NCBI GenBank assembly: GCA_964465065.1 | Contig: CAYXHZ010000006.1 | Span: 1,185 to 65,184, forward strand | Source: an uncultured Clostridia bacterium | GTDB lineage: Bacteria > Acidobacteriota > Aminicenantia > UBA2199 | DNA: 64,000 nucleotides | Direction of reading: 5' to 3' | Shown here: one piece after another, positions 1-38,706 of the stretch | Numbering within the stretch: the stretch's first letter is position 1 | How the letters are laid out: the number at the start of each line of letters is the position of its first letter | The notes under the pieces: generated by a model | What the model was told of the DNA's origin: nothing | Database searches by the model: none | The model's input: only the letters and a program-made list of their open reading frames with translations | Position numbers and translations under genes: made by a program

Positions 1-63
1 CAGTTTTACCGCGCCGACCAGCAGCAACACGACGAAAACCAGTATAATGTCTTTCTTGCTCAT
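1..63 (-). CDS. Partial CDS (N-terminus only; continues off window): small hydrophobic protein beginning MSKKDIILVFVVLLLVGAVKL
   Basis: ATG at 63..61 on the minus strand. The A of this ATG is shared with the TGA stop (62..60) of the downstream 60..290 ORF (ATGA overlap). The translation is strongly hydrophobic. Likely a further member of the ECF/LiaF-TM operon. Confidence 0.3.
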   Translation of the reverse strand, partial: MSKKDIILVFVVLLLVGAVKL

Positions 64-290
64 CGATTGGCATCGTCCCGATCCGAATCCAGCGGCGCTT
101 GGGCTTCATGGCGCTTCTGCAGGTGCGGCCAGAGGTTCTTGAGACCGACCGCGATCAGAATCAGGGGCCAATAGGTCAGAAACAGATCCCCGATATCGAT
201 ATCGAAACCCAGATTGTTCATCAGAAAGATGGCACCGAGCACCAGGAATAACACACCCCAGAACAGGTTGCTCTGCTGTTGATTTTTCAT
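60..290 (-). CDS. Small membrane protein with a LiaF-N-terminal-TM-like (DUF5668-type) motif ...DLFLTYWPLILIAVGLKNLW
   Basis: 76-aa ORF with two predicted TM helices. The C-terminal motif D(I/L)xDLxxxWPLILIxxGLK recurs in the adjacent 292..759 protein. 1-nt gap to the upstream gene, consistent with an operon downstream of the ECF sigma/anti-sigma pair. Confidence 0.5.
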   Translation of the reverse strand: MKNQQQSNLFWGVLFLVLGAIFLMNNLGFDIDIGDLFLTYWPLILIAVGLKNLWPHLQKRHEAQAPLDSDRDDANR

Positions 291-291: not shown

Positions 292-759
292 TCAATGCTC
301 CTTATTTTTACTTTTGGTGGCCATTTTCAAACCCAAAAATATCAGAATCAAAGGCCATAGATCGACGATGTCGCTCAGATCCAGATCCCATACGTCCAGG
401 TTGCCAAGCTGCAGCACGATGCCGGCGACGATCAGAACCAGGGCCAGTCCCAGTGACGGCAGGGCGGAAGCGGGCTCGACGGCTGACTCCAGGGCGGAAG
501 CGGGCTGTGCCGCAAAGTCCCTGGCATCCTGGTAGGCGTCGAAAATCTGAAAGAAATAAAAGGCCGACATCAGCAGGGCGATGATGACGTGATGCTCCGC
601 CCGATCGGCATGCACCTGGGCGACGATCAGGGTGGCCATCAAGGCCATGTAGCTGAGCGCCTTGAGGGGATTGCGCAGGTAAAAGTGACCGGTGCCCATC
701 ACGATCGCCGACAGACTCGCCGCCAGCAGGGGATTTTTTCGGACAGTCGTTTCAGCCAT
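292..759 (-). CDS. Membrane protein with a C-terminal LiaF-TM-like motif (DLSDIVDLWPLILIFLGLK) and an internal short repeat (ASALESAVEPASALPS)
   Basis: 155-aa ORF with an N-terminal TM region and the same C-terminal motif as the 60..290 protein. It overlaps the anti-sigma stop by 8 nt, suggesting translational coupling. Confidence 0.5.
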   Translation of the reverse strand: MAETTVRKNPLLAASLSAIVMGTGHFYLRNPLKALSYMALMATLIVAQVHADRAEHHVIIALLMSAFYFFQIFDAYQDARDFAAQPASALESAVEPASALPSLGLALVLIVAGIVLQLGNLDVWDLDLSDIVDLWPLILIFLGLKMATKSKNKEH

Positions 760-1255
760 TGTTCGTTCGCTCCTCCAGGCTGCCGGCAGGCGGCCGGGAT
801 TCGTTGCCGATGAAGGAAATCGGCATCGTTCTGACTTCCTGATCTTTCTGGAAACGGAAGAACAGGGCCTCGGTCTCGACGGCGATGCGTTCGATCCCTG
901 AAACCAGACCGTGCAGAGTGCGGTTGGCCTGGGGGAAGATATTGGTGAAATAGAAGAGGTTGAAAAACAGGATCATGGTGGCGATCATAGCCGCCGCCCA
1001 CTTCATGTACAGAGCCGGGTGTTCGTCCTCTTCGACGCTGTAGGCTTCCGGGATGTAATAGAGGCGGTTGCGCAGGAAAAACGGTACCTCCTCCTCGAGT
1101 TGGGAGCTGCCGGACAGAATCGAGACCAGATCTTCGTGCAGACAGCGGCACTGCGGACAAAGCTCGATGTGCGCGGCCATCTGGCGACCCGTGTTGTCGT
1201 CGAGCGTACCTTCGATATAATCGGACAGCAGTTCTTCGAAGCTACTGCATTCCAT
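752..1255 (-). CDS. Anti-sigma factor, zinc-finger (ZAS-type HxxxCxxC: AAHIELCPQCRC) with one TM segment
   Basis: The ORF in the track starts at 1348, but the internal ATG at 1255 (MECSSFEELLSDYIEGTLDD...) gives a typical ZAS N-terminus. It overlaps the ECF sigma stop by 14 nt. The hydrophobic stretch AAMIATMILFFNLFYF is the TM helix. Confidence 0.65.
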   Translation of the reverse strand: MECSSFEELLSDYIEGTLDDNTGRQMAAHIELCPQCRCLHEDLVSILSGSSQLEEEVPFFLRNRLYYIPEAYSVEEDEHPALYMKWAAAMIATMILFFNLFYFTNIFPQANRTLHGLVSGIERIAVETEALFFRFQKDQEVRTMPISFIGNESRPPAGSLEERTNNG

Positions 1256-1802: not shown

Positions 1803-1831
1803 ATAAACGTCCCGGGGAACCGAAAAGTTCC
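1803..1831 (-). promoter_or_regulatory. Candidate autoregulatory ECF-type promoter GGAAC-N17-CGTTTA upstream of the ECF sigma gene
   Basis: Minus-strand reading: tGGAACttttcggttccccgggaCGTTTAtcaaaacagaATG. The GGAAC sits inside a palindrome (GGAAC-N6-GTTCC). The -10 would lie close to the ATG, implying a short or leaderless transcript. Confidence 0.3.
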
Positions 1832-8064: not shown

Positions 8065-8357
8065 CCGTCGGTTTGCTGGTGATGGACATGATCATCGAGG
8101 AAGCGACCAGTCTCAAGGACAAGCGCATGGTGCTCAGCAGCCTCAAGGACCGGGTAGGCAGACAATTCAACGTGTCCCTCATCGAAAGCGCGCACCAAGA
8201 CCTGTGGCGCAACGCCGAACTGTCCTTCGCCGTGCTCGCCATCAGCCATCGCCAAGCCGAACAGCAACTGGACAGCATCGAACGCTTCATCTTCGATTCG
8301 TACCCGGGCCGGCACAGCGGCAGCCATCGTCAATACTTCGACGGCCTGGAAAAGTGA
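8061..8357 (+). CDS. DUF503 (YlxP-like) protein
   Basis: 98 aa. SLKDKRMVLSSLKDRVGRQFNVSLIESAHQDLW matches the DUF503 signature (SLKEKR..S...R....FNVS.AE...DLW). ATGA overlap with the infB stop. Confidence 0.75.
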   Translation: MTVGLLVMDMIIEEATSLKDKRMVLSSLKDRVGRQFNVSLIESAHQDLWRNAELSFAVLAISHRQAEQQLDSIERFIFDSYPGRHSGSHRQYFDGLEK

Positions 8358-11743: not shown

Positions 11744-14371
11744 ATGAGTAAAAGAAATAGGATTGTCGGGATGCTGATTCTGATGCTCGGGCTGACAGGA
11801 ACCGTCCGGGCTGTTGAAAAAGCCCCAATCCGGGCCGAACGGCTCCAGGATCCAGTAACCGTCGATGGACGGCTCGAGGAGTCGTCCTGGCAGCGACAGG
11901 GTTACTGCGAGTTCTGGCAGCGGGAGCCGGACGAAGGCAAACCGGCCAGCGAAAGGAGCGAGGTGTGGCTGGCCTACGATGATGATGCCCTCTATGTGGC
12001 CGCCCGCTTGAGCGATTCTCAGCCCGAACTCGTGTCCGGGCTGCTGGGGCGGCGAGATACGGAATTAGACTGCGACTGGTTCACCGTCTATCTCGATCCC
12101 TATCTGGACAAACTCAGCGGCTTTGCCTTCGGCATCACTCCGGCGGGATCGGTCAGCGATCGCGCCTTGTATAACGATGTCGGATGGAACAGTCTATGGG
12201 ATGGCATCTGGAACGGCAAGGCCCAGCGGGACCGCCAGGGCTGGACGGTGGAGATGCGCATTCCCTTCAACCAGCTCCGCTTTTCCAAAAAGGATGGGGA
12301 ATATCGCTGGGGAGTTCATTTCCGGCGCATCGTCATGCGCAAGAATGAAGTGTCCGATTCGGCGCCCATACCCCGGACCGGCAATAACATGGTATCCCTG
12401 TTCAAGGAAATGGTGGGCATCGAAGGCATCGCCCCGCGACCGTTGATCATGGTCAGTCCCTACCTGGTGGGAAAAGGGGAATTCCTCGCCGGAGAGGTGG
12501 ATCAGGCGACGGGGAATCTGGGGCTGGACGCCAAGATCGGCCTTCGGAGCAACCTGACTCTCGACCTGTGTGTCAACCCCGATTTCGGCCAGGTGGAGGT
12601 GGATCCGGCCAGCATCAACCTCAGCGCCGCCGAGACCTACTATCAGGAAAGACGTCCCTTCTTCATAGAGGGTGCGGATCTGTTTACCAATTTCAGCTTC
12701 TGTGGTGGGAATCACCCCAGTGCTGGCTGGAACAACCCCCGATTCTTCTACAGCCGTCGCATCGGCCGACCACCGCAGGGTTCCGTTTCTCAGTCCGGTC
12801 AGATCGATATGCCGGAATGGGCGACGATTCTGAGCGCGGCCAAACTGACCGGCACCCTGGGGAACGGATGGAAGATCGGGGCCATCTACGGACTGACCGA
12901 GCGGGAGTTCGCCGCAGTCGATGATCTGGGCCAGGAGTTCGAGGTGGAGGTCGAGCCGCTGACCCATTACGCCGTACTGCGCACCCAGAAGGAATTCAAC
13001 CAGGGGCGGCAGGGTCTGGGCTTCCTGGGCACCCTGGTGGCCCGGGATTTTGCGGATGATTCCCTGCGAGGGGCTCTCAATTCCGATTCCTGGATGGTGG
13101 GGTTCGATGGCTGGGCGTTCTTCGGTCCGCAGAAGAATTGGGTTTTGAGTGGATGGTTCAGTTCCAGCCGGGTCAACGGTTCGGCCCAGCGCATCACCTC
13201 CTTGCAGCAAGAATTCCCCCATTACTACCAACGTCCCGACATGAGTCATGTGAACCTGGATACTGGTTTGACCCATTTGGATGGCTGGGTCGGCAGAATT
13301 GAAGTCAACAAGGAAAAAGGGAATTTAAGATTCAATGCGGGACTGGGTGCCGTGTCTCCGGGTTACGATATCCGGGACGGCGGGTATCATACGAGCGCGG
13401 ATGTCATCAACGGGCATGTGCTGGTCGGGTGGCAGGATTTTACTGTGGGGAAGGTGATACGCAAATGGAACATCGATCTGTGGCATCAGCGCAACTACAA
13501 TTTCGCCGGGGACAAGATCGGCGAACAGCGTGTCATTGTCGCGGCCAATGCCCAATTCCTGAACTACTGGTCCTGCAATTTTATGACCAGTTACAATCCC
13601 GGTCATTTTTCCCAGACCGCGACCCGAGGCGGACCGTTGATGAAGATACCATCCTATCAATGGTATAATTTTACCATCAGCAGCGACAGCCGCAAACGGC
13701 TGGTCGGCTCCCTGTCCGGTTATGTGAACCAGAGCAGCAACGGGTCATCGGAAAACACTTTCTCCCTGTCTCTCAGTCTGAAACCCAGCAGCCGGTTCAG
13801 TCTGTCCATCAGCCCGGCTTACAGCTCTATCAATGAACGGGCCCAATACGTGACCCAGGTCAATGATCCGACGATGACGGCCACCTACGGCAAGCGGTAC
13901 GTTTTCTCTGCTTTGGATTTGAAGGAACTCTCCTGTTCCATGCGCATCAACTGGATCTTCACGCCCCAGCTCAGTCTGCAGGGATATATCCAGCCTTTTC
14001 TTTCGGTGGGTCATTACCGGGATTTCGCCGAACTGGCTGAGCCGTCGAGCGATCGATTCAGGCCATTCGGACACGATGGCTCCACCATCGAAGCGGAAAA
14101 CGGGTCGTTTGGGGTCGATCCCGACGGCAGCGGGCCGGCCGCTCCTTTCCGGTTCAACAATCCCGATTTCAACCTCAAATCGCTGCGAGGCACTCTGGTC
14201 CTGCGCTGGGAGTACCTTCCGGGATCGAGCCTGTATTTCGTCTGGACGCAGAATCGGGCCGACTATGCCAACCCCGGCGATTTCCGTTTCGGCCGTGACC
14301 TGGGCGATCTGTTCTCCGCCCGGGGAGACAATGTCTTCATGGTAAAACTGACCCACGGTTTCAATCTGTAG
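11744..14371 (+). CDS. Large exported DUF5916 / CBM9-like (family-9 carbohydrate-binding-like) domain protein
   Basis: ATG at 11744 with an AGGAG SD 7 nt upstream. Signal peptide MSKRNRIVGMLILMLGLTGTVRA. The N-terminal region (..WLAYDDDALYVAARL..DWFTVYLDPY..) is typical of DUF5916/CBM9-like proteins, and the C-terminal 600 aa is beta-rich. Confidence 0.6.
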   Translation: MSKRNRIVGMLILMLGLTGTVRAVEKAPIRAERLQDPVTVDGRLEESSWQRQGYCEFWQREPDEGKPASERSEVWLAYDDDALYVAARLSDSQPELVSGLLGRRDTELDCDWFTVYLDPYLDKLSGFAFGITPAGSVSDRALYNDVGWNSLWDGIWNGKAQRDRQGWTVEMRIPFNQLRFSKKDGEYRWGVHFRRIVMRKNEVSDSAPIPRTGNNMVSLFKEMVGIEGIAPRPLIMVSPYLVGKGEFLAGEVDQATGNLGLDAKIGLRSNLTLDLCVNPDFGQVEVDPASINLSAAETYYQERRPFFIEGADLFTNFSFCGGNHPSAGWNNPRFFYSRRIGRPPQGSVSQSGQIDMPEWATILSAAKLTGTLGNGWKIGAIYGLTEREFAAVDDLGQEFEVEVEPLTHYAVLRTQKEFNQGRQGLGFLGTLVARDFADDSLRGALNSDSWMVGFDGWAFFGPQKNWVLSGWFSSSRVNGSAQRITSLQQEFPHYYQRPDMSHVNLDTGLTHLDGWVGRIEVNKEKGNLRFNAGLGAVSPGYDIRDGGYHTSADVINGHVLVGWQDFTVGKVIRKWNIDLWHQRNYNFAGDKIGEQRVIVAANAQFLNYWSCNFMTSYNPGHFSQTATRGGPLMKIPSYQWYNFTISSDSRKRLVGSLSGYVNQSSNGSSENTFSLSLSLKPSSRFSLSISPAYSSINERAQYVTQVNDPTMTATYGKRYVFSALDLKELSCSMRINWIFTPQLSLQGYIQPFLSVGHYRDFAELAEPSSDRFRPFGHDGSTIEAENGSFGVDPDGSGPAAPFRFNNPDFNLKSLRGTLVLRWEYLPGSSLYFVWTQNRADYANPGDFRFGRDLGDLFSARGDNVFMVKLTHGFNL

Positions 14372-14400
14372 GGGACGAAAACCTTGACGGCAGCGGACAC

Positions 14401-14790
14401 ATGGCCGATTTCTTCAAACAGCTCAACGGTCAGGACGGGAGTTATTAGCGTCAGAGCCATGGCGGACGGGGCTATGTCTTTCAGGATCGCTACAAATCAT
14501 ACCTGATCCAGGATGAGGCCTACCTGATGCTCTGCCTGGCCTATGTGCTCAACAACCCGGTCAAGGCCGGAATATGCAAGGGATTCGAGAACTATCGCTG
14601 GTCCAGTGCCCAGTCCTACTTTTCAGATGAACCCCCAGAATGGCTGGACACGACGTTTATCGAAGAACTCTTCGGAGATGCCGATGCTTTGATGCGCTTC
14701 GTGGATGCGCAGGCCGAACTGGATCCGTTCGCCGATCTCAGCGTCAACAGCCTGGGGGTCATGTACCATCGGGCCCGCCGGAAAGGGTAA
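14401..14790 (+). pseudogene. 3' remnant of an IS200/IS605-family HUH (RayT / REP-associated tyrosine transposase-like) transposase, with an in-frame TAG
   Basis: Frame-1 translation: MADFFKQLNGQDGSY*RQSHGGRGYVFQDRYKSYLIQDEAYLMLCLAYVLNNPVKAGICKGFENYRWSS.... This matches the C-terminal third of Y1/RayT transposases (..WQ.RY....I.......YI..NPV.AGLV....YPWSS). The HUH-containing N-terminal half is absent because the DUF5916 stop abuts it at 14371. Confidence 0.65.
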
Positions 14791-14823
14791 CGGTGGGCGA
14801 CAATGTAAAGAAGTACAGCACTG

Positions 14824-15468
14824 TCACCCCCGCCTCCGTGTTCGCCACATGTAGACAGACACCAGAATGCCGATTACGGGGTAGGTAATACCAACCGTTG
14901 AACTGATCAAGAAGAGAGGCTGAATAATCAGGGCGGCAAACACAAAAGGCGCCGCGCAACCATGGATCAGCATCATGATTCTGATCGTTTTTATAATCCC
15001 GCGGCCTTTGATGGCCAAGGCCATGAACAATGTCGAAAGGCCCATCAAGGTATACGCCAGGCCATTGACAGCATAAAAAGGTTTACCTGCCGCCATTTCA
15101 AAGATCGAAACGCTTTGAAAGGTATTGTTTAAAAAAGAGGGGGCAATTATCATCACCTGTACAACATACACGACTGAATTCAAGGTGGCGTAAATGACGG
15201 CCAACGCCACTGCGAACGAGAACAATATTTTCACTTTGTTTATTTCATCGCGATAGAGAGACAAGGTCATTCCCAGGAATGAATAGGCCAACAGCAGCGA
15301 TGGTCCGTACCATGAAAGCGAAATCCAGAACTGCGATTCCATGACTCCTGTCAATCCCAAAACCGCTGCGACATCAAACATGATGTAAAAAAGAGATGAT
15401 AAAATCGCCGTGATAAAGCCGAACATTTTTGCAGTGCGGAATTCCTGATCTGAAAACATGTCACTCAT
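14824..15468 (-). CDS. Polytopic membrane protein encoded in a low-GC islet, function unknown
   Basis: 214 aa with about 6 TM helices. The local GC is clearly lower than the flanks (AT-rich codons, many Ile/Phe/Lys/Asn). Confidence 0.55.
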   Translation of the reverse strand: MSDMFSDQEFRTAKMFGFITAILSSLFYIMFDVAAVLGLTGVMESQFWISLSWYGPSLLLAYSFLGMTLSLYRDEINKVKILFSFAVALAVIYATLNSVVYVVQVMIIAPSFLNNTFQSVSIFEMAAGKPFYAVNGLAYTLMGLSTLFMALAIKGRGIIKTIRIMMLIHGCAAPFVFAALIIQPLFLISSTVGITYPVIGILVSVYMWRTRRRG

Positions 15469-15760
15469 TCGCTCCTCCTTTTGAGTGTTCCAAATGTCTT
15501 CAATGCGCTGTTAGGCCAGAAATGTTTCATTTTATACGGTCTGATCGAAAAAAGTTTGTTTTAATTCCCAATATAGCCATGATGATAAAGAAAGACACCG
15601 TGATTAAACCACAGATCATACATATCACGCCATCGGAACATATACGGAGACGAGCGTTCAATGTTCCAGACAGGTAATCCGATACGCTGATTGTTATAGG
15701 ACAGTGAAAACAATAAAGCAAGAAGATGACTCGGCAATTCGTCCGGTCGCGGCAGAAATT

Positions 15761-16414
15761 TCAGTAGTAGATCGTCACCCGGAAGGAACCGGAATTGTCG
15801 CCGAAGTCGAAATCGTTGATGCCGATGAACAGGCGCCCGGCACGGCTCATGCGGATCGGCGCCCGGTTGTTGCCCACGTAGAACGGCGGACCATCCTCGG
15901 CCACCCGGGCGATGACGGCCCCGGTCGGCTGTGTCGGCATGGTCTTGTCCTTGTGCCAGTTGAGATTGAGCTCACCGTCCTGGAAAACCGAATTCTTGTC
16001 GTCGATGAAGATCGATCCGCTGCAGGAGAACATGATCTCCTGGCCGGTCTGCACCGTCAGACCGGTGTCGATCCATTGTTGACCGGCCTGGAGATCGACG
16101 CTGAGCGACCGTTTTTTTCGGCGCAGTTTCTGATACTTCTGCTCCACATCGTAGGCGGATTGAATGATTTGCGGGGCTGCCGAGGTGAACTCGATCTTCC
16201 ATACCTTGCCGATCGGTATCCTCAATGTATGACTTTCCGCCTGCCCCTGTTTGAAGACATTGAAAAAAATCGTCTCGTAGCGCAGATCGACCATCTTGCC
16301 GATATACTGAGTGCCATCGGTCGTATACAGGACATGATGCTCGGCAACCAGCGCCCGGGGCCAAGCCCAGATCAAGCCCAAAAACAAACCCAGCCAAGCC
16401 AGCCGTTTACTCAT
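15761..16414 (-). CDS. Secreted protein with a C-terminal PA-IL (LecA)-like lectin domain
   Basis: Start at MSKRLAWLGLFLGLIWAWPRALVA (signal peptide). The C-terminus ..GAVIARVAEDGPPFYVGNN..RLFIGINDFDFGDNSGSFRVTIYY resembles P. aeruginosa LecA (..[38 protein letters not shown]). Start overlaps the stop of the DapF-like gene by 8 nt. Confidence 0.5.
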   Translation of the reverse strand: MSKRLAWLGLFLGLIWAWPRALVAEHHVLYTTDGTQYIGKMVDLRYETIFFNVFKQGQAESHTLRIPIGKVWKIEFTSAAPQIIQSAYDVEQKYQKLRRKKRSLSVDLQAGQQWIDTGLTVQTGQEIMFSCSGSIFIDDKNSVFQDGELNLNWHKDKTMPTQPTGAVIARVAEDGPPFYVGNNRAPIRMSRAGRLFIGINDFDFGDNSGSFRVTIYY

Positions 16415-17243
16415 CGCCAGACTCCAGATATTCTCCCTTATAAACGATCCGGGTACGGTTTTCAATAAAGATGCGGTCGCAACCGGATATTTTTATTTTT
16501 TCCCCGCTCGGCGGCAAGAAAACCAGCTCGCTCAAACCTGGTTCGAGAGCCCGGAGCACCGCGTAGGCGCCGGCCGTTCCGGTGGACGAGGACAGGGTCG
16601 CTCCGACGCCGCGCTCGTAAAAGCGGATGCCGACCCCGTCGTCGCCCCGGTCGGTGATGATCGACACGTTGGTGCGCTGCGGAAAGATCGGTTGGCGGTG
16701 CAGTTCTTCGGCCAAGGCCAGCGCCTCGGCCGTCGATTGTCCGGCTGCCTGAAAGAAAACGACCTGCGGGTTGCCGACGGCGACCGGGTAGAAACGGAGG
16801 GAACGGTGATAAAACCCGTCACGCCAGCGCCGCTGCGGGTCGGCATTGAGAAAAGGGAAAAATCGGCTGTCGGCGAAATCCGGAAGCCCCAGATCGATCC
16901 GCAGACGGTAGCCGTTGTCCCGGCTGTCCAGCAGGCGGTGGCGATAGAGGTCGCGAATCCCGGCCAGCTCGATGGTATCGCCGTTCGCACCCAGATGGCA
17001 CAAGAGCGCGCTCAGACCGGCCATACCGTTGCCGGACAGTTCGGCCTCCAGGCCATCCTGGTTGAAAATGCGGAAAGAAACCGGCCGAACGGACCGGTCG
17101 TAAACGACCAGCCCGTCCGCGCCCGCACCGTAGTGACGGTCGCACCAGCGCCGCACCTGCGTCGGCGAAGGTGGCCCGCTCAGCTCGGCGGCATCGACCT
17201 GTAAAAAGTCGTTACCGCCGCTGCAGCTCTTGTAAAAAACCAT
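16407..17243 (-). CDS. Diaminopimelate-epimerase (DapF) family protein with both catalytic cysteines replaced (Cys73->Ser, second Cys absent)
   Basis: MVFYKSCSGGNDFLQVD (GNDF motif). FRIFNQDGLEAELSGNGMAG aligns to E. coli YRIFNADGSEVAQC73GNGARC. FYERGVGATLSSSTGTAGAYAV aligns to [21 protein letters not shown] with no Cys at all. ATG at 17243 overlaps the degP TGA (TGATG). Confidence 0.7.
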   Translation of the reverse strand: MVFYKSCSGGNDFLQVDAAELSGPPSPTQVRRWCDRHYGAGADGLVVYDRSVRPVSFRIFNQDGLEAELSGNGMAGLSALLCHLGANGDTIELAGIRDLYRHRLLDSRDNGYRLRIDLGLPDFADSRFFPFLNADPQRRWRDGFYHRSLRFYPVAVGNPQVVFFQAAGQSTAEALALAEELHRQPIFPQRTNVSIITDRGDDGVGIRFYERGVGATLSSSTGTAGAYAVLRALEPGLSELVFLPPSGEKIKISGCDRIFIENRTRIVYKGEYLESGDE

Positions 17244-18712
17244 CACTCTTCGGGAATGGTGAACGGAATGACCTGCTCGTTGCCCTGGCGGTTGATGTAG
17301 AGGTAAACGCCGTCACCCGGTGAACGCCGGCCCATGAGCTCGCGGAACTGTTTGACCGATCTCAGTTCGGTCCGGCCGACGGCGATGATGACGTCGTTGG
17401 GCCGCAAACCCTGCTGATGCGCCGCACCGCCGCGCACCACCTGGTCGACGACGACGCCCTCGTCGGTCTTGAGCTTGCGGCGCGAGGCCTCGGCGGCGTT
17501 GTTGTCCACCAGCACCATGCCCAGATCGATGAGCCCGCCGTCTTCCCCTTCGGCCTGGATGGTCTCCGATTCCGGAGCCTCGCCGACGATGACCGTGAAC
17601 GAGATGGGCTTGCCGTCACGCACAACGCCGACCGCCAGCTTTTCTCCCGGTTTGAGTTCGGCCACTTTGATGCTCAGCAGGCGGGATTCCTTGATCGGTT
17701 CTCCGCCCAGCGAAGTGATCAGATCGAGCTTCTTGAGGCCCGCCTTCTCGGCCGGTGAACCTTTCTCGACCGAGCGGATCAGGATACCGGGCTGACCGAT
17801 ATCGAACTTCTTGGCTCTTTCCTCGTCCATTTCCTCGATTTCCACACCCAGCCAACCGCGGATGACGCGGCCGCCCTTCTTGAGGTCCGCCACGACCCGT
17901 CTGGCCAGATTGGAGGTGATGGCGAAACCCAGGCCGATGCTGCCGCCGCTGTTGGAAACGATGACCGAGTTGATACCGATGACCTGGCCCTGCATGTTGA
18001 TCAGCGGACCGCCGGAATTGCCCTGGTTGATGGCGGCGTCGGTCTGGATGAAATCCTGGTACTGCAGACCGGACTGACGCAGCCCTTCCATGTAACGGCC
18101 CTTGGCGGAAATGATGCCGCTGGTGACGGTCAGATCCTGGTAGAGAGGGTTGCCGATGGCCAGAACCCATTCCCCGACCTCGGCCTTGTCGGCGTCGCCC
18201 ATTTCCAGGTAGGGGTGATCGCCACCCTCGATCTTGAGCAGGGCCAGATCGGTCTTGGAATCCTCGCCGATCTTCTTGGCCTTGTATTTCTTCTTGTCGA
18301 TGGTCTCGATGGTGATGCTGATGGCGTCCTTGACCACGTGATGATTGGTAATGATGTAGCCGTCGGCGGAAATGAAGAAGCCCGAACCCAAACCTTCGAC
18401 GGGTTGACGTCGCTGCGGCTGCATGTTGAAGAAGCGGTCGAAGATGTCATCGCCGAAAGGGGACTGGCTCCTTTCGGAAATGATCTGCGTCGACACCTTG
18501 ACCACGGCCGGCCGCACTTTGCGTACGATCGGGGCGAAGCCCATACCCTGGGCCGGATTGTTGTCGGTGGCCGCCAGGACCGGAGTCGCTGTCAATCCCA
18601 AAACCTCGGCGGGAGGATTATCCGTCGCATCCCGGTTCAGAAAACCCGTGAAGGCCAGAGTGGACAGGCCGACCAGGAATCCCAGCAAACTGGCTAAAAC
18701 AACTTTTTTCAT
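17243..18712 (-). CDS. degP: Periplasmic serine endoprotease DegP/HtrA (trypsin-like domain plus two PDZ domains)
   Basis: Signal peptide MKKVVLASLLGFLVGLSTLA. Catalytic motifs NHHVV, DLALLK and GNSGGPLINMQGQVIGINS. Two PDZ-like C-terminal regions. AGGAGG SD 6 nt upstream of the ATG at 18712. Confidence 0.9.
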   Translation of the reverse strand: MKKVVLASLLGFLVGLSTLAFTGFLNRDATDNPPAEVLGLTATPVLAATDNNPAQGMGFAPIVRKVRPAVVKVSTQIISERSQSPFGDDIFDRFFNMQPQRRQPVEGLGSGFFISADGYIITNHHVVKDAISITIETIDKKKYKAKKIGEDSKTDLALLKIEGGDHPYLEMGDADKAEVGEWVLAIGNPLYQDLTVTSGIISAKGRYMEGLRQSGLQYQDFIQTDAAINQGNSGGPLINMQGQVIGINSVIVSNSGGSIGLGFAITSNLARRVVADLKKGGRVIRGWLGVEIEEMDEERAKKFDIGQPGILIRSVEKGSPAEKAGLKKLDLITSLGGEPIKESRLLSIKVAELKPGEKLAVGVVRDGKPISFTVIVGEAPESETIQAEGEDGGLIDLGMVLVDNNAAEASRRKLKTDEGVVVDQVVRGGAAHQQGLRPNDVIIAVGRTELRSVKQFRELMGRRSPGDGVYLYINRQGNEQVIPFTIPEE

Positions 18713-18760
18713 GTGCATCCTCCTTTGTATAGATAGTCTATCGGTATTCGATTACTATCA

Positions 18761-18790
18761 GACGCTCTGTCAACCCATCGGGTTTCACGA
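18761..18790 (-). promoter_or_regulatory. ECF (sigmaW/sigmaE-type) promoter candidate tGAAAC-N17-CGTCTGA upstream of degP
   Basis: Minus-strand reading: gtGAAACccgatgggttgacagagCGTCTGAtag, about 45 nt upstream of the degP ATG. Compare B. subtilis sigmaW TGAAAC-N16-CGTA and E. coli sigmaE -10 TCTGA. Confidence 0.4.
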
Positions 18791-19000
18791 TTGATTTTAA
18801 CACGATTGGCGGCGGGACAGAATGCCGGACAGGCGGAAAAATATGCAGCCTCACGGCGGTTTTTTCCGCACCCGACCCGCACCGCCACCGTGCAGCGCCG
18901 TGCCCCGGAATGACGCCTGAGCCGGGTCCAGAGCCGTAAATGCGGACGGGCCGGACCGGACCGTCACGGTCTGCGCACATGGCAACGGAATTGCTGAACG

Positions 19001-20227
19001 ATGGGCATGAACATACCTACTGGCAGCGTCTCGACCCTCAGCCTTCGTATCGACAATCGTTGCCGGCTGTCCGGCGACAGCCAGTCCCCCAGAACGGACA
19101 GAAAAGGCAAACCGGCCCAGGCCGACAACGATTTCGAACAGGCGATCAGTACGCAGAACCTTCCCGAGCCCCAGCCCCCGAAAGAGCAGGAAACCGAAAC
19201 ATCCGGAACCGAAACGCAAACCAGACCCGCCGACAGTCCGGCCAGTGCCGACGACACGGCGGCGGCCGATTTGCCAGCCTCTCAGGAACTTCAGGGCGAA
19301 ACGGCCGACTCCGATCCGGCCAGAGCGCAGGAACAAACCCGGACCGATGCCCCGGCCCAGATCCAGACCGAACTGCGCTTGCCGCAACCCCAGTTTATCC
19401 AGCAAACGGCAGCGATCGCCTTCGACAGCGCCCTGGTCGATCTCTCGGCAGACGCAGGACCGCAGACCGCCAAGCCGGTGCCGGAGCAGGCGCCTGCCAC
19501 GTCCCGGACCGATCCGGCCGCCAGCAAGGTCATCCAGACCAATATTCCCGCGCAGACCGAGCCAAGCCCCTTGCCCTGGACAGACGGCGAACAGAACGAA
19601 GGCGCCGGCACTGCGACAGTCTCCGAACCGGTTTTACCCAAAAAAATTCCCGAAAAGGGACTGCCAACCGGACTCGGCCACAGCCAGCCGGAGAACGGCC
19701 TGACGCCGCCAACCGGCGTTCCGTCCGGTGAGGCAGCGGTCAATACGGCCCAGATCAGCCAGGCGACGCCGGTCTGGCAGAACAGCCCGGTCAACCCCGC
19801 CGACATCATCGACCAGGTCCGGGTGCAGATCCTGCAGGGCAGCAAGTCGGGTGAAAAAAAGATCACCATGCAATTGCAACCCCCGGAACTCGGCAAGATG
19901 AGCATCGAACTGTCCCTGAGCGACAAACAGATCGAGGCCCGCATCTACACCGAACATCAGGTGGTCCGCGAGGTGGTACTGTCACAGATCGAGCAGCTGC
20001 GCTCGCAACTGGCCCAGGAAGGTTGGAATCTCAACAAGGTCGATGTCAACATCGGCACCTTTCGCGAACAGCAGGACCAGACGGCCCAGGCTGCACTGCA
20101 ATCGCTCAGAGCCGGCTACCGTGGCGGCGCGGCCGCCGGTCGGGACGGGCAAACGGAAAGCGCCGATACCGCTCAGCGGGTCTGGCAACCACCGGGATTG
20201 GGCAGAAGGGTGAACCTGATCGTCTGA
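19001..20227 (+). CDS. Protein with a FliK (flagellar hook-length control) C-terminal Flg_hook-like domain and a Pro/Gln/Thr/Ala-rich low-complexity N-terminus
   Basis: The C-terminus ADIIDQVRVQILQGSKSGEKKITMQLQPPELGKMSIELSLSDKQIEARIYTEHQVVREVVLSQIEQLRSQLAQEGWNLNKVDVNIG matches the FliK C-terminal domain. No other flagellar genes are nearby. The start codon is uncertain. Confidence 0.55.
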   Translation: MGMNIPTGSVSTLSLRIDNRCRLSGDSQSPRTDRKGKPAQADNDFEQAISTQNLPEPQPPKEQETETSGTETQTRPADSPASADDTAAADLPASQELQGETADSDPARAQEQTRTDAPAQIQTELRLPQPQFIQQTAAIAFDSALVDLSADAGPQTAKPVPEQAPATSRTDPAASKVIQTNIPAQTEPSPLPWTDGEQNEGAGTATVSEPVLPKKIPEKGLPTGLGHSQPENGLTPPTGVPSGEAAVNTAQISQATPVWQNSPVNPADIIDQVRVQILQGSKSGEKKITMQLQPPELGKMSIELSLSDKQIEARIYTEHQVVREVVLSQIEQLRSQLAQEGWNLNKVDVNIGTFREQQDQTAQAALQSLRAGYRGGAAAGRDGQTESADTAQRVWQPPGLGRRVNLIV

Positions 20228-24494: not shown

Positions 24495-26792
24495 TCAGGC
24501 CTCGGACTCTTCGGAATCCCCGCTGCCCATGCCGCCGGCGCGCAGGCCGGCCAGGTCCTCGACCCCCATCAGGATCTCGCGCTGGTTGCGGCTGTTGGCC
24601 TCCGACACCACCCCCTGAGCCTCCAATTGGTCCATGATTCGCCCGGCGCGGGCGTAACCGACGCTGAGCCGGCGCTGCAGAAAGGACGTGGACGCCTGAC
24701 CGGTCGAGATGACGATCTCGGCCGCCTGGTAGAACAGTTCGTCGAGAACGTCGCTTTCCTCGCCTTCCTCGCGGTTGGTCTGCGCTTTGACCACCTGGGT
24801 GTTGTACTTGGGTTTCTGCTGCTTGGCCAGGAAGTTGACCACCCGCAGCGCCTCCTCTTCGGAAACGTAGGCGCAGTGCAAACGCACCAGCACAGCGGTT
24901 TTCGGCGGCATGAACAGCATATCGCCGTGTCCGAGCAGTTTTTCGGCACCCATGGCGTCGATGACCGTGCGCGAGTCGTGCTTGGAGGGCACGGCCAGGG
25001 CGATGCGCGAAGGGAAGTTGTTCTTGATGGTGCCGGTGATGACATCCACGGAAGGCCGCTGGGTGGCCAGAATGATGTGAATGCCAACGGCCCGGGCCTT
25101 CTGGGCGATACGGGCGATATCGTACTCGATCTCCTTGGTCGATTCCATCATCAGGTCGGCGAATTCGTCGATTACGATGACGACATAGGGAAGTTTCACC
25201 GGCTCGCCCAGGTCGACGGGAATGTCGCCTTCGGAATGAACCAGGAGCTCGATGCGTTTGTTGTACTGATCGAGGTTGCGCACCTGCAGGATGGCCAGTT
25301 TCTTGTAGCGCTCCTCCATCTCGTAAACGGCCCAGTCCAGGGCGTTGCGGGCCAGCTTGGTGTTGACCACCACCGGAGTCAACAGATGGGGCAGGGAATT
25401 GTAGATGGCCAGCTCCACGCGCTTGGGATCGATGAGCACCAGTTTGACCTCGTCCGGCGAGGCCTTGTAGAGGATGCTGAGGATGATGGTGTGAATGGCC
25501 ACGCTCTTGCCGCTGCCGGTGGCCCCGGCGATGATCAGGTGCGGCATTTCGCGCAGGTCGGTGATGAAGATCTCCCCGTTCTTGCTTTTGCCCAGGGCGA
25601 TGGTCAACGGGGAACGGGAGTTGCGGTATTCGGCGGACTCCAGAATTTCACGCAGATGGATCACCTCGCGTTTCTTGTTGGGGATTTCGATACCGATGGC
25701 CATCTTGCCCAGGATGCGCTCGATGCGCACGTACTGGGCCCGGGCCGCCAGGGCCAGGTCCTCGGCCAGATTGGTGACGTCCTTGACCTTCACGCCGGTG
25801 TCGGGAACGAACTCGTAGGTGGTGATGACCGGGCCCGGAGTGTACTCCACGATGCGGCCGCTGATTTTGAATTCCTGCAGGCGTTGCGCCAGATCGTGCA
25901 TCTTGTCCCGCAGCTCCTGATGATCGATCTGCGAACGTTCGGTCGGCGCGTCCAGGTAGGTCAGCGGCGGCGGGTGGTAGCCGATCAGCCCCCCTTCGCT
26001 GAGATCGCCGAACAGCAGCCCTTCTTCCGGTATCTTGCTCGGCTCCCGGACCAGGCGCTTCTTCTCCTTGCCGTCGAGTTCCGGTTCGGCCTTGACCGCC
26101 TCGATCTTGGGATCGCTTTTGCTCACCTTCTGGTGATACTTCTCCTCGATGCGCTTGATTCGGCCTTCCTCTTCCTTCTTGTCCTGCCGGTCCTGCCAAT
26201 GGGACTGAAAGACCAGCAGCAGTTCACGACCGTTAGCCAGCAGCCACTTGACCAGGCGACGCATCGAGAACCGGGCCACCAGGGCCAGCGCGACAACCAG
26301 CAGCAGAAGAAACAGAAACAGGGCGAAGACGCTCTTGATCTGCCCGGAAACCATGTCGTTGACGATGAAGCCGATAAAACCTCCGCTGCGCACCTGGATG
26401 CCGTCCATGCTGACCAGCGGGTGGACATTGTCGAAAATCGCCGCCAGCGCCATGGCCAGCAGCAGGTAACCGACCGATTTGGTCACCATGCTGGGGATGC
26501 GGCGGTTGACCAGAAAATAGACGGCCCAGATCACCAGGTAGACCACGACGGTAAACGAGGCGAAGCCGAAGAGCGTGTACAGCATGGCCGACAGGTAGGC
26601 TCCGAGACGGCCGGCCAGATTGTCGACGCCATCCTGAGCGCCGGCGGAAAAAAAGCTGGGATCGGTCGGAGAATAGCTGAACAGGCTGAACAGCAGCAGA
26701 ACCGCCACAAAAATGAACAGCAATCCCCAGAGTTCGTTGTGCAGACGAAGTTCTTGGGTGTCGACCATCCGGGGGTGCTGCGTGCTTTTCAT
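24495..26792 (-). CDS. ftsK: DNA translocase FtsK/SpoIIIE
   Basis: N-terminal TM region, a Glu/Lys-rich linker, and a C-terminal motor (IAGATGSGKSV Walker A; ..LVLIDPK..; ..VVIVIDEFADLM..) plus the gamma domain. The start is uncertain: 26792 or 26768, while the track ORF extends to 26951. Confidence 0.85.
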   Translation of the reverse strand: MKSTQHPRMVDTQELRLHNELWGLLFIFVAVLLLFSLFSYSPTDPSFFSAGAQDGVDNLAGRLGAYLSAMLYTLFGFASFTVVVYLVIWAVYFLVNRRIPSMVTKSVGYLLLAMALAAIFDNVHPLVSMDGIQVRSGGFIGFIVNDMVSGQIKSVFALFLFLLLLVVALALVARFSMRRLVKWLLANGRELLLVFQSHWQDRQDKKEEEGRIKRIEEKYHQKVSKSDPKIEAVKAEPELDGKEKKRLVREPSKIPEEGLLFGDLSEGGLIGYHPPPLTYLDAPTERSQIDHQELRDKMHDLAQRLQEFKISGRIVEYTPGPVITTYEFVPDTGVKVKDVTNLAEDLALAARAQYVRIERILGKMAIGIEIPNKKREVIHLREILESAEYRNSRSPLTIALGKSKNGEIFITDLREMPHLIIAGATGSGKSVAIHTIILSILYKASPDEVKLVLIDPKRVELAIYNSLPHLLTPVVVNTKLARNALDWAVYEMEERYKKLAILQVRNLDQYNKRIELLVHSEGDIPVDLGEPVKLPYVVIVIDEFADLMMESTKEIEYDIARIAQKARAVGIHIILATQRPSVDVITGTIKNNFPSRIALAVPSKHDSRTVIDAMGAEKLLGHGDMLFMPPKTAVLVRLHCAYVSEEEALRVVNFLAKQQKPKYNTQVVKAQTNREEGEESDVLDELFYQAAEIVISTGQASTSFLQRRLSVGYARAGRIMDQLEAQGVVSEANSRNQREILMGVEDLAGLRAGGMGSGDSEESEA

Positions 26793-26979
26793 TTCTGGCA
26801 AAGTATAGGCAGCACGCCTGTTTTTGTCAAGAAAGCTCCTGTTTTGGCTTTGTCGCCGGTCCGGGCCGCCATGCCGAAACGCAGCCCGTTCTTCCTGTTG
26901 CGACAGCAGTGAAAACCGAAAAAAAACATGGTAATATTCAGCTACAATCAATCATTCGGCAACGCAACAGGAGGCATCC

Positions 26980-27339
26980 ATGGTTCGCAAAGCTTTGGTT
27001 TTGGCAGGCATCATCGCGGCATTGTTCATCGCCAGTCAGCTTCTGGCCGGAGAACAGGATTTCACACTGATCAATTCGACCGGCGTCGAGATCCATGAGC
27101 TGTACATCTCCGCCCATTCGACCAACGAATGGGAAGAAGACGTCCTCAGCGTCGACACTTTGCCCGACGGCGAAGAAGTCACCATCAATTTTCCCCATGA
27201 AGAGGACGAATGCCTCTGGGACATGATGGTCAAAGACAGCGAAGGCAACAGCATCACCTGGCAGAACATCGATCTGTGCCAATACGCCAGCATCACCCTG
27301 CATTTCAAAGACGGCAAGGCCTGGGCCGAATGCGAATAA
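26980..27339 (+). CDS. Small secreted acidic protein, function unknown
   Basis: Signal peptide MVRKALVLAGIIAALFIASQLLAG. 119 aa with 4 Cys. Confidence 0.4.
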   Translation: MVRKALVLAGIIAALFIASQLLAGEQDFTLINSTGVEIHELYISAHSTNEWEEDVLSVDTLPDGEEVTINFPHEEDECLWDMMVKDSEGNSITWQNIDLCQYASITLHFKDGKAWAECE

Positions 27340-27370
27340 GGCCCGCTCGCTGACTTCAGCCTCTCACAAA

Positions 27371-27403
27371 GGCGGCCAAGCTGTCCGCTTGGCCGCCTTT
27401 TTT
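27371..27403. terminator. Rho-independent terminator (GGCGGCCAAGC-tgtcc-GCTTGGCCGCC followed by TTTTTT), bidirectional between convergent genes
   Basis: Perfect 11-bp GC-rich stem, 5-nt loop and a T6 tract, all seen directly in sequence. Confidence 0.6.
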
Positions 27404-27414
27404 ACCTGTTCAGC

Positions 27415-29204: not shown

Positions 29205-29218
29205 CGGAGCCTCCGCCT

Positions 29219-34455: not shown

Positions 34456-34456
34456 A

Positions 34457-35500: not shown

Positions 35501-35563
35501 CCGGAATTCCCCGCACCTGAGGCCGACGTATGTAGAGGCATGAAATCAACTGTGAGGTGAAAC

Positions 35564-36520: not shown

Positions 36521-36528
36521 TCATCGCA

Positions 36529-36550: not shown

Positions 36551-36582
36551 GCTCCTTCCTGAATCTCATTCGACCCAAAGCT

Positions 36583-36610
36583 GAAACAAAAGCAGTCGCC
36601 GATTCGTACC
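36583..36610 (+). promoter_or_regulatory. ECF (sigmaW-like) promoter candidate cTGAAAC-N17-CGTACC upstream of the M13 peptidase gene
   Basis: ctGAAACaaaagcagtcgccgattCGTACCaattttt, about 40 nt upstream of the ATG at 36649. Same pattern as the degP and ECF-sigma upstream regions. Confidence 0.35.
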
Positions 36611-36648: not shown

Positions 36649-38706
36649 ATGAAAATTTCCGTACAAAAGTTCCGCACTGTTCTGTTTTGGCTCGTCTTCA
36701 CACTGGTTTCGACCGACTCGGCATTCCTGGTCGCCGACGACACGAAGACACCGGCTCTGGACAAGAACAACATGGATGTATCCGTCAGACCCGGCGATGA
36801 TTTCTACCGCTACGCCAACGGTCTGTGGATCAAGAGATTCAATCTGCCCGACGACCGCAGTTCCTACGATGCCTTCGATCAGGTACGCGAGCAGAACCGC
36901 GACCGTCTGCATGCCCTGTGCCAGGAACTGGCCGCCACGCCCGGCCGGTTTCAAACGGGCAGCCCGGCGCAGAAGATCGGCGATTTCTACGCTACGGCCA
37001 TGGACACGGAAACCATCGAAAAACTGGGCTATGAGCCGTTGCAGGAAGAGCTGAAGCGCATCGCCGCCTTGAGCGATGTTAAAAGCCTGCTCGCCTTGCT
37101 GGCAGAATTTCACCGCAACGGCCTGGGCGCTCTCTTCGGTGGCGGAGTCATGGCCGATCTGGCCAATTCCAAGGCTACCGCCTATTACCTGGCCCAGACC
37201 GGACTCGGACTCTCCGACCGGGATTATTACACCCGGGACGATGCCGACGCCCAGCGCATCCGCCGCGAGTACCTGATCCACATCGCCAAGATGATGCAGC
37301 TCATCGGCGACAGTTCGCAACAGGCCGAGCAGGCGGCCAAGACGGTCATGGCCATCGAAACCCGCCTTGCCAAAGCTTCCAAAACCCGGGTCGAGATGCG
37401 CGATATCCCCGGCCTGTACAACAAGATGAGTATTACCCAGCTCCAGTCCCACTGTCCCCAGGTGGACTGGACCGCCTATTTCCAGGCCATCGCCGGCCGG
37501 GAAATCCCCGAAGTCGTCGTCATGTCCCCCAAGTTCTACAAGGAGATGGGTCTGATGCTGCAGGAAGTCCCGATCGCCGACTGGCGCTGCTACCTGCGCT
37601 GGCACCTGACCACCTTCTGCGCAGATTATTTGAGTTCGGACTTCGTCAACGAGGATTTCCGCTTCTTCGACCAGATCATGGAAGGCACCAAGGAGATCCA
37701 GGAACGCTGGAAACGCATGACCAACCTGACCAGCGACTGTCTGGACGAGATCATGGGTCAGATGTACGTGGAAAAATACTTCCCGCCTGCAGCCAAACAG
37801 CGCATGGCCCAGATGGCCGCCAATATCAAGCAGGCCCTGGAAGCCCGCCTGAAATCGGTCAGCTGGATGGGTGAAGAAACCAAAAAAGAGGCCCTGGCCA
37901 AGCTGGCGGCCATGAAGGTCGAGGTCGGTTACCCCGACAAGTGGCAGGATTACAGCAAGCTGGAGGTCAAGCGCGACGGATTTCTGGCCAACATCAGACG
38001 CTACGGCCGCTTCAACTTCGAAAAAAACATGCAGGAATACGGCAAGCCGGCCGACCACAGCAAGTGGGACATGCCGCCGCAGGTCGTCAACGCCGCCTAC
38101 AACCCGATCTTCAACCGCATGGTCTTCCCGGCGGGCATCCTGCAGGCCCCCTTCTTCTTCATGGACGCCGACGACGCCATGAACTACGGCGCCATCGGCA
38201 TGGCCATCGGCCACGAGATGAGCCACGGTTTCGACGACCAGGGCCGAAATTTCGACAGGGAAGGCAATCTGCGCGACTGGTGGACTCAGCAGGACGCAGC
38301 CGAGTTCAAGAAAAAGACCCAGGTGCTCGTCGACCAGTACAGCGCCTTCACCGCCGTGGGCGATGTCAAGGTCAACGGTGAACTCGCCCTGGGCGAAAGC
38401 ATCGCCGATTTCGCCGGTCTGACCATCGCCTATGATGCCTACCGCCTGTCTCTGGCCGGCAAAGAACCGGAACCCATCGACGGTCTCAGCGGCGGACAGC
38501 GCTTCTTTCTGGCCTTCGCCCAACTGTGGCGCGGCAAGATCCGCGACGAGGCGCTCAAGCGCATGGTCAGCGAGGACGTCCACCCCTGGGGCGAGTTCCG
38601 GGTCAATGGAGCCCCGTTCAACGTGCCCGCCTTTTACGAACTCTTCCAAATCAAAGAAGGGGACAAACTGTACCGCAAACCCGAGCAACGCGCCGTGATC
38701 TGGTAA
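36649..38706 (+). CDS. M13-family zinc metalloendopeptidase (neprilysin/PepO-like), exported
   Basis: IGHEMSHGFDDQG (HExxH) and GESIADFAGL (the ENIAD-type motif). Signal/TM N-terminus. 685 aa. Confidence 0.85.
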   Translation: MKISVQKFRTVLFWLVFTLVSTDSAFLVADDTKTPALDKNNMDVSVRPGDDFYRYANGLWIKRFNLPDDRSSYDAFDQVREQNRDRLHALCQELAATPGRFQTGSPAQKIGDFYATAMDTETIEKLGYEPLQEELKRIAALSDVKSLLALLAEFHRNGLGALFGGGVMADLANSKATAYYLAQTGLGLSDRDYYTRDDADAQRIRREYLIHIAKMMQLIGDSSQQAEQAAKTVMAIETRLAKASKTRVEMRDIPGLYNKMSITQLQSHCPQVDWTAYFQAIAGREIPEVVVMSPKFYKEMGLMLQEVPIADWRCYLRWHLTTFCADYLSSDFVNEDFRFFDQIMEGTKEIQERWKRMTNLTSDCLDEIMGQMYVEKYFPPAAKQRMAQMAANIKQALEARLKSVSWMGEETKKEALAKLAAMKVEVGYPDKWQDYSKLEVKRDGFLANIRRYGRFNFEKNMQEYGKPADHSKWDMPPQVVNAAYNPIFNRMVFPAGILQAPFFFMDADDAMNYGAIGMAIGHEMSHGFDDQGRNFDREGNLRDWWTQQDAAEFKKKTQVLVDQYSAFTAVGDVKVNGELALGESIADFAGLTIAYDAYRLSLAGKEPEPIDGLSGGQRFFLAFAQLWRGKIRDEALKRMVSEDVHPWGEFRVNGAPFNVPAFYELFQIKEGDKLYRKPEQRAVIW

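Follow-up and report, generated by a model that had tools for sequence, protein, structure and literature searches.

Probable ECF-class promoters of three subtypes upstream of a sigma operon, degP and an M13 peptidase gene in an Aminicenantes-like bacterium

Does one sigma factor read every promoter that resembles its own? The question is raised by a stretch of 64,000 nucleotides from contig CAYXHZ010000006.1 (assembly GCA_964465065.1, positions 1,185 to 65,184), referred to below as the window, which encodes an extracytoplasmic function (ECF) sigma factor, a degP operon and a metallopeptidase of the M13 family. An initial annotation had noticed a common pattern, G(G/A)AAC-N17-CGT(C/A/T)(T/C), upstream of these three transcription units and, in weaker form, before a DUF4097 gene and a low-GC membrane gene, and had proposed that it outlines a candidate envelope-stress regulon of the sigma factor encoded here. 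We consider it fairly likely that the three main sites are evolutionarily maintained ECF-class promoters (AAC at -35, CGT at -10 and a gap of 17 nucleotides) that belong to three distinct subtypes, and that only the first of them is securely tied to this sigma factor. A single regulon tying the three promoters together is unproven, and appears somewhat disfavoured by the conserved differences between the subtypes.

Conserved boxes upstream of three genes

All three sites are present as first described (Table 1): GGAAC-N17-CGTTTA before the sigma gene (1804-1831, minus strand), GAAAC-N17-CGTCTGA before degP (18758-18786, minus strand) and GAAAC-N17-CGTACC before the M13 gene (36583-36610, plus strand). 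Upstream of the sigma gene, the minus strand reads GGAACTTTTCGGTTCCCCGGGACGTTTATCAAAACAGAATG, and the -10 box ends 10 nucleotides before the ATG at 1793. A scan limited to one genome per species yielded five orthologs of the sigma gene in the same neighbourhood (fused LptF/G, sigma, ZAS anti-sigma, LiaF-TM), one with 89% and four with 52-56% protein identity, from Aminicenantes, Acidobacteria and 'Omnitrophota' metagenome-assembled genomes (MAGs). Two further lineages (83% and 57% identity) came from a protein collection, which makes eight loci including the window. In all eight, the start codon is preceded by the consensus (G/A)GAAC(T/A)TTT-N12/13-CGTT, of which GAAC, TTT and CGTT are the sole invariant runs across loci whose sigma proteins share 52-89% identity; the spacer is free in sequence and 16-17 nucleotides in length. 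With a matrix derived solely from the four most distant orthologs, the site in the window comes first of 128,000 positions, and the strict motif has no other occurrence in 313 kb of related DNA. The invariant boxes uphold the assignment of an ECF-type promoter at this gene, through which the sigma factor is probably autoregulated, and are about the best support that sequence can lend to it. In each of the eight lineages, 4-14 nucleotides separate the -10 box from the start codon, and the sigma mRNA is therefore probably leaderless or nearly so.

Upstream of degP, the minus strand reads TGAAACCCGATGGGTTGACAGAGCGTCTGA, followed by a leader of 45 nucleotides that carries AAGGAGG before the ATG. 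The window was aligned with four orthologous loci (70-83% protein identity) in which the divergent Flg_hook-like neighbour is conserved. The only invariant runs of four nucleotides or more in the non-coding alignment of these five species are AAAAA, TGAAAC and GCGTCT. The gap of 17 nucleotides between GAAAC and CGT is maintained and the ribosome-binding site is conserved, while the spacer sequence is not. The site thus displays AAC, CGT, a gap in the 16-17 nucleotide range and the orientation of an ECF-class promoter, with conserved boxes around a free spacer. Immediately after AAC, the four relatives have TTT (TGAAACTTT) and the window has CCG.

A second element abuts the -35 box of the degP site on its upstream side. 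The block GTGnTA(A/G)AAT is found in all five degP orthologs, and is probably a housekeeping promoter of degP, which we read as an extended -10 type. A simple scan of this intergenic region for two-hexamer sigma-70 promoters and terminators returned nothing, the putative extended -10 having no -35 hexamer. The arrangement suggests tandem promoters, a constitutive one and, directly downstream, one of the ECF class. Homologs of DegP collected from metagenomes were rejected as a footprinting set: at 36-46% identity and from other lineages, they fall outside the orthologs of this clade and tell us nothing here, GRAAC-N15-18-CGT occurring in 3 of the 73 that had enough upstream DNA.

At the M13 gene, the plus strand reads TGAAACAAAAGCAGTCGCCGATTCGTACC and continues into a leader of 38 nucleotides with TAGGAGA. 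The motif xxAAC-AA(A/T)-N14-CGTA lies upstream of all five orthologs (66-75% identity), with the -35 variants TGAAAC, GAGAAC and CCGAAC; MAFFT had misplaced one instance, which a pattern search brought back. Here too the boxes are conserved and the spacer is free, as in an ECF-class promoter, and the motif remains with the M13 gene even where another gene intervenes upstream.

Could the degP and M13 matches be chance occurrences without function? Counts over the whole window are not unusual: on both strands, there are 8 occurrences of GRAAC-N17-CGT where 4.72 +/- 2.12 are expected (8 or more in 8 of 100 shuffles) and 8 of GRAAC-N16-CGT where 5.0 are expected. Upstream regions were taken from a GC3-based gene map as 23 correctly oriented intergenic stretches (3,231 nucleotides). 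These include all three main sites where 0.086 matches are expected, a P of about 1e-4 that is inflated, the degenerate pattern having been fitted to these very sites after they were seen; the unfitted generic pattern AAC-N16-18-CGT occurs 4 times against 1.96 expected (P = 0.13). It follows that in-window statistics alone do not carry the claim. The comparison between species speaks otherwise. Both boxes are invariant in five orthologous loci for each gene, whereas the other non-coding DNA around them is just 5-17% invariant. In addition, when 313 kb of related loci are searched, the M13 subtype turns up before the M13 gene and once elsewhere (L102, 920-946), and the degP subtype, besides its position upstream of degP, has two intragenic matches in the window. 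Conservation effectively refutes a chance origin, which we regard as very improbable.

Alternatively, the degP and M13 blocks might be transcription-factor sites, or an element of a 5' untranslated region transcribed from an upstream housekeeping promoter. Indeed, a transcript initiated at the extended -10-like element just upstream of degP would include TGAAAC...CGTCTGA. Yet a bipartite sigma site has just this signature, two short invariant boxes at a fixed gap of 17 nucleotides with a free spacer between them; the boxes are not mutually complementary, so that pairing between the two in an RNA is not expected; and an Rfam scan of the whole window gave no match. Furthermore, the boxes correspond to the AAC/CGT hallmark of ECF promoters (PMC8103513) and lie 41-49 nucleotides before start codons that have a conserved ribosome-binding site. 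A role other than that of promoters is thus improbable. Invariant boxes and free spacers at orthologous loci therefore argue that all three sites are genuine ECF-class promoters, in agreement with the initial annotation.

One sigma factor or several

ECF promoters as a class are marked by AAC at -35 and CGT at -10 (PMC8103513, PMC5758882). What the three sites share is therefore a signature of the class and provides no link to one particular sigma factor. Outside this core the three sites differ, and each difference is kept among orthologs. The sigma promoter is of the form GGAACTTTT/CGTT (GGAAC-TTTT) in 8 of 8 orthologs, with T as the fourth base of the -10 box. The degP promoter is of the form GAAACTTT/CGTCTGA (GAAAC-TTT) in 5 of 5, with C at this position, the window itself having CCG after AAC. 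The M13 promoter, AAC-AAA/CGTA in 5 of 5, has A. In Bacillus subtilis, which among organisms with several ECF sigmas has been studied best, the last base of the -10 box (CGTA, CGTC or CGAC) and a T-tract beside the -35 box partition promoters among ECF paralogues, CGTC promoters being common to several ECF sigmas (PMC5758882). The conserved differences between the sigma, degP and M13 subtypes fall at these B. subtilis selectivity positions.

A matrix made from the eight autoregulatory sites gives 23.7 bits to the sigma site, 0.7 to the degP site of the window and -0.7 to its M13 site, the last two ranking about 4,200th and 7,200th of 128,000 positions. As a control, the same matrix was applied to two promoters of unrelated ECF sigmas and gave 14.1 bits for B. 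subtilis PsigW and 13.1 bits for Escherichia coli rpoE P2. These values are similar to those of the degP sites of the relatives (see below), which means that the matrix recognises an ECF promoter, not specifically one of this sigma factor. Following this control, the matrix was rejected as a discriminator of regulon membership. At neither target was there a match to the sigma factor's own motif standing both above background and above the promoters of other ECF sigmas.

The relatives encode at least two further ECF sigma factors (L112, 8211-8774; L099, 12773-13366). That of L112 (region 8211-9818), accompanied by two unknown proteins, adjoins on the upstream side the ortholog of the sigma gene studied here, and has GGAAT-N17-CGTTTA before a short leader. 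That of L099 (region 12773-15329) is followed by a vWF-A/YfbK_C protein of 649 amino acids and has GTTAC-N17-CGTTAC upstream. A search for a second sigma gene within the window found none.

Let us then weigh a single envelope-stress regulon, in which the sigma factor encoded at 1242-1793 would directly drive its own operon, the degP operon, the M13 gene and possibly the DUF4097 gene at 35564. It is favoured by the identical AAC-N17-CGT core with 17-nucleotide spacing at all three genes, by the conservation of all three sites and by the degP sites of the relatives, which have AACTTT like the sigma promoter. In E. coli, degP/htrA is a classical ECF target. The functions are also suitable, with Lia/Psp-type membrane-stress domains as operon partners (PMC11237479) and envelope proteases as candidate targets. 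On the other side stand the generic nature of the core (PMC8103513), the background scores of the degP and M13 sites in the window, and the PsigW and rpoE P2 sequences, which at 13-14 bits equal the degP sites of the relatives, so that the matrix cannot assign a sigma factor. The differences at selectivity positions are themselves conserved, the genomes carry several ECF sigmas, and the DUF4097 site fails (see below). We think a regulon of this kind unlikely. What stands of the earlier proposal is the existence of three ECF-class promoters and of a sigma factor that is probably autoregulated; the step from the shared pattern to this particular sigma factor does not, in view of the generic hallmark, the subtypes, the matrix scores and the additional ECF sigmas.

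Several observations weigh against our own reading, that of three promoters of three subtypes with only the first secured to this sigma factor. The degP sites of the four relatives score 10.8-14.3 bits with the sigma matrix and rank 2nd to 14th of 25,000-40,000 positions (the top 0.01-0.04%), which is compatible with a single regulon. The own-promoter candidates of the two additional ECF genes in the relatives match the degP and M13 sites no better, and no alternative sigma factor was found among them. The degP comparison involves fairly close relatives (70% identity or more). In L114, an Aminicenantes degP ortholog of 52% identity, the site is degenerate, TGAAAC-N17-TGTCTTA, and is accompanied by a textbook TTGACG-N17-TATAAT; L116, an ortholog of 51% identity, has no ECF-class site upstream of degP and only a sigma-70-type promoter. 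Finally, at all three genes the term promoter is given on the strength of architecture and conservation.

With these points in mind, the three-subtype reading suggests the following course of events. Envelope stress would inactivate the anti-sigma, and the freed sigma factor would bind core RNA polymerase and begin transcription only some nucleotides ahead of the sigma start codon, creating positive feedback on a five-gene operon; both the stress signal and the transcription start sites are what we infer. degP would be served by the housekeeping-type extended -10 element plus the stress-inducible ECF-class promoter TGAAAC-N17-CGTCTGA. The chance that the latter is read by this sigma factor seems to us a little under even. 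If it is, it would probably be read weakly in this genome, because the T-tract beside the -35 box has been lost; otherwise its reader would be a different ECF paralogue, or more than one if their specificities overlap. That the M13 promoter is served by this sigma factor is rather doubtful, another ECF sigma being the likelier reader. The products all have hydrophobic segments at the N-terminus, as suits envelope proteins. These pairings of sigma factors with promoters are predictions.

The sigma operon and neighbouring features

Table 1. Genes and sites of the window (coordinates in nucleotides, position 1 being the first letter of the window)
Feature	Coordinates	Strand	Remarks
ECF (group 4) sigma gene, 183 amino acids	1242..1793	minus	Pfam Sigma70_r2 (E = 3e-20), Sigma70_r4_2 (E = 2.5e-13), Sigma70_ECF
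Membrane-anchored ZAS (zf-HC2) anti-sigma gene	752..1255	minus	Pfam zf-HC2, E = 1.3e-9; one hydrophobic segment
LiaI-LiaF-like transmembrane protein gene, operon gene 3	292..759	minus	Pfam LiaI-LiaF-like_TM1, LiaF-TM
Small LiaI-like membrane protein gene, 76 amino acids, operon gene 4	60..290	minus	tblastn with the 73-amino-acid protein of L112, 70% identity
Operon gene 5, start; cut short by the left window edge	1..63	minus	ATG at 63-61 overlaps the preceding stop; opens MSKKDIILVFVVLLLVGAVKL
Probable autoregulatory ECF-type promoter of the sigma operon, GGAACTTTT-N13-CGTTTA (GGAAC-N17-CGTTTA)	1804..1831	minus	conserved in 8 loci
Probable ECF-class promoter of the degP operon, TGAAAC-N17-CGTCTGA	18758..18787	minus	45 nucleotides upstream of ATG 18712
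Extended -10-like element, GTGTTAAAAT (TGnTAAAAT)	18794..18803	minus	immediately upstream of the degP ECF -35
degP operon	15761..18712	minus	Pfam; overlapping stops and starts
Do/DegP protease gene	17243-18712	minus	Trypsin_2 and two PDZ domains; start 18712 as in P0001
DapF-like epimerase gene	16407-17246	minus	Pfam; degP operon
Gene for a 217-amino-acid protein	15761 to ~16414	minus	third gene of the degP operon
Probable ECF-class promoter of the M13 gene, TGAAACAAA-N14-CGTACC	36582..36610	plus	38 nucleotides upstream of ATG 36649
M13 family metallopeptidase gene	36649..38706	plus	Pfam Peptidase_M13_N, Peptidase_M13; hydrophobic N-terminal signal/anchor segment
Weak site before the DUF4097 gene (35564-36520)	35503..35533	plus	not ECF-type by the tests made; the gene matches Pfam DUF4097
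Weak site before the low-GC membrane gene, GAAAC-N16-CGC	15502..15530	minus	off-pattern
Better candidate within that intergenic region, TGGAACATTGAACGCTCGTCTCCGTATA (GGAAC-N16-CGTA)	15641..15669	minus	172 nucleotides upstream of gene 14824-15468

Among NCBIfam models, only the sigma70-ECF superfamily is matched above its cut-off by the sigma protein (108.9 bits against 42.9), and the Pfam and NCBIfam domains together place it in the ECF (group 4) class. The true start is, on our reading, at 1793; the public gene call P0242 (164 amino acids) begins at Met20, probably because a ribosome-binding site is missing. Residues 1-19 are conserved and align in the orthologs. The start of the anti-sigma gene overlaps the sigma stop by about 14 nucleotides, and this gene is kept in all orthologous loci; its start at 1255 is predicted from the like arrangement in L112 and L102. 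A zf-HC2 domain, one transmembrane segment and the overlap with the sigma stop are the features of a co-transcribed cognate anti-sigma.

In the relatives, five genes follow one another in the order sigma, ZAS anti-sigma, LiaF-TM, small LiaI-like protein and DUF4097/Toastrack, a longer operon than the initial annotation had recognised. The LiaF-TM gene is syntenic in L001-L005, L102 and L112 and encodes 151-161 amino acids in the relatives, and the small LiaI-like protein has 61-73 residues there. Of the fifth gene, the window holds the first 21 codons. By synteny it would encode a DUF4097/Toastrack protein of 415-423 amino acids, the domain itself lying outside the window; a DUF4097 gene holds position 5 in L102-L107, L112 and L113. 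The firm tie between the sigma factor and DUF4097 is therefore co-transcription within the sigma operon, and not the gene at 35564. As a whole, the operon looks like a Lia/Psp-type sensor set tied to an ECF sigma in place of a two-component system.

The sigma operon is immediately preceded by a gene that joins LptF and LptG in one protein of 771 amino acids (1905-4220, minus strand). The arrangement of fused LptF/G and sigma is kept in L001-L005, where the sigma promoter fills most of the gap behind the LptF/G stop, which measures as little as 44 nucleotides. The closest genome match, L001 (CAYMND010000005.1), with 89% sigma identity and full synteny, carries the label 'uncultured Clostridia bacterium', and L002 (JBLMYT010000103.1), with a sigma ortholog of 56% identity, is labelled 'Candidatus Omnitrophota'; the other relatives are all Aminicenantes or Acidobacteriota. 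The taxonomic labels of the L001 and L002 MAGs are probably wrong.

The order of degP, dapF-like and 217-amino-acid genes recurs in L093, L094, L095 and L097, and of the four ortholog loci three have it in full; L096 reaches its contig end soon after the start of the third gene. All five species have a conserved inverted repeat, CGGAAAAA-N~17-TTTTTCCG (18833-18869), in the region that separates degP from the divergent Flg_hook-like gene (19001-20227). On the strand that faces this neighbour it has a moderate sigma-matrix score in three relatives but lacks the invariant AAC, and it could be an operator or another type of promoter.

The two weaker sites that had been added to the regulon did not withstand closer inspection. 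Before the DUF4097 gene, counting in the padding 'TC' gives a spacing of GGAAT-N19-CGT, there is no AAC, and GGAATTC is not conserved in three orthologs; by these tests the site is not of the ECF class. The elements conserved upstream of this gene are ATTGCAAT, invariant in all four orthologs, GAAC, and CGTAT (35527-35531), also invariant. ATTGCAAT is self-complementary and is followed, in three of the four sequences, by a further copy that is exact or nearly so. These boxes are probably the operator of some other regulator and not an ECF -35/-10 pair; a sigma-54 reading was rejected by eye against the GG-N10-GC spacing. The window also has an inverted repeat, ATTGCAATACAGAACC...GGTTCTGTATTGACAAT, at 35461-35500 upstream of DUF4097. 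Just past the DUF4097 stop codon lies a perfect 10-bp stem without a T-run, GGGGCTTGAT-CC-ATCAAGCCCC (36529-36550), a possible terminator or RNA-stability hairpin parting DUF4097 from the M13 promoter.

Before the low-GC gene, the site proposed at 15502-15528 reads GAAAC-N16-CGC, without CGT, and its rank of 35-146 with the sigma matrices is owed only to AACATTT. The candidate farther upstream reads GGAAC-N16-CGTATA and is the best intergenic match to the sigma matrix in the window besides the sigma site; it ranks 4th of 128,000 positions when the window's own site contributes to the matrices, and 26th when the four distant orthologs alone do. The gene encodes 214 amino acids with about five membrane segments and has a GC content of 46% (41% upstream) against 59% for the window. 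Neither Pfam nor NCBIfam models match it, it lacks a counterpart in the relatives, where the neighbours differ, and no ortholog of the gene or of its upstream region was found among the fetched loci.

Known ECF and Lia/Psp systems

The initial annotation had likened the system to B. subtilis sigmaW rather than to E. coli sigmaE. At the protein level this is not borne out: among solved structures, E. coli sigmaE (1OR7) is the closest with 83.6 bits, followed by SigW with 75.5 and Mycobacterium tuberculosis SigE with 75, so that the three are about equally distant. Scores with the NCBIfam equivalogs lie far below the cut-offs, both for SigW (NF007223/TIGR02948, 117.2 bits against 209 and 103.9 against 243.1) and for RpoE/sigmaE (TIGR02939, 92 against 236.15). 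The protein belongs to no curated equivalog.

In B. subtilis, sigmaW is arranged with RsiW/PrsW/RasP, whereas the partners here are a small ZAS, LiaF-TM and Toastrack. Likenesses exist nonetheless to the sigmaW/X/M/V network, with its (T)GAAAC at -35, CGT at -10 and overlapping promoter recognition (PMC5758882): the degP and M13 sites begin with TGAAAC, the M13 site ends in CGTA as sigmaW sites do, and SigW is the best NCBIfam match of the sigma protein. The gap, in contrast, is 17 nucleotides here and 16 there, and the sigma factor's own promoter is GGAACTTTT/CGTT, not TGAAAC/CGTA.

As in the E. coli sigmaE system, an ECF sigma that is probably autoregulated appears to be held by a membrane anti-sigma. 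The -10 box of degP, GTCTGA, resembles those of sigmaE promoters. The E. coli sigmaE -35 box, GGAACTT (PMC3326320, PMC8103513), is similar to that of the sigma promoter, whose -10 box, CGTT, sets it apart. No homologs of RseA, RseB or RseC were found in the sigma loci, where the partners are ZAS, LiaF-TM and Toastrack proteins.

Sigma factors of the SigH and SigR types have a ZAS anti-sigma, as is the case here. The EcfG-type and actinobacterial SigE/SigH-type promoters, GGAAC-N16/17-CGTT, resemble the sigma factor's own site, canonical EcfG promoters having AAC at -35 and CGTT at -10 (PMC8103513). Unlike the EcfG systems, this one has no NepR/PhyR partner-switching module, and its taxon is that of Aminicenantes/Acidobacteriota-like MAGs.

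LiaI-LiaF-TM domains and Toastrack domains co-migrate and have been seen beside an operonically linked sigma factor (PMC11237479). The sigma operon shares LiaI-LiaF-TM and Toastrack/DUF4097 proteins with the Lia/Psp systems; the classical lia operon is under the control of the LiaRS two-component system, while an ECF sigma/ZAS anti-sigma pair occupies this place here. Neither PspA nor PspC was seen in the loci examined. A search of the literature for DUF4097 with ECF and anti-sigma factors, and for Aminicenantes with ECF sigmas, returned nothing relevant.

An ECF sigma with its anti-sigma, and ECF-type promoters before envelope proteases, are expected biology and would not surprise a specialist. 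One may go further and picture Aminicenantes-like bacteria in which a Lia/Psp-type sensor set is wired to an ECF sigma/ZAS pair in a nearly leaderless, autoregulated operon, the sigma factor directly switching on DegP and the M13 peptidase through deliberately sub-optimal promoter variants, with that of degP layered on a constitutive promoter; we think it unlikely that this picture would hold as a whole. A match to AAC-N17-CGT alone cannot assign a gene to a particular ECF sigma where the genome has several. Regulation in uncultivated Aminicenantes/Acidobacteriota is essentially uncharted, and three promoters supported by conservation may serve there as anchors for the reading of metatranscriptomes and for heterologous sigma-promoter assays.

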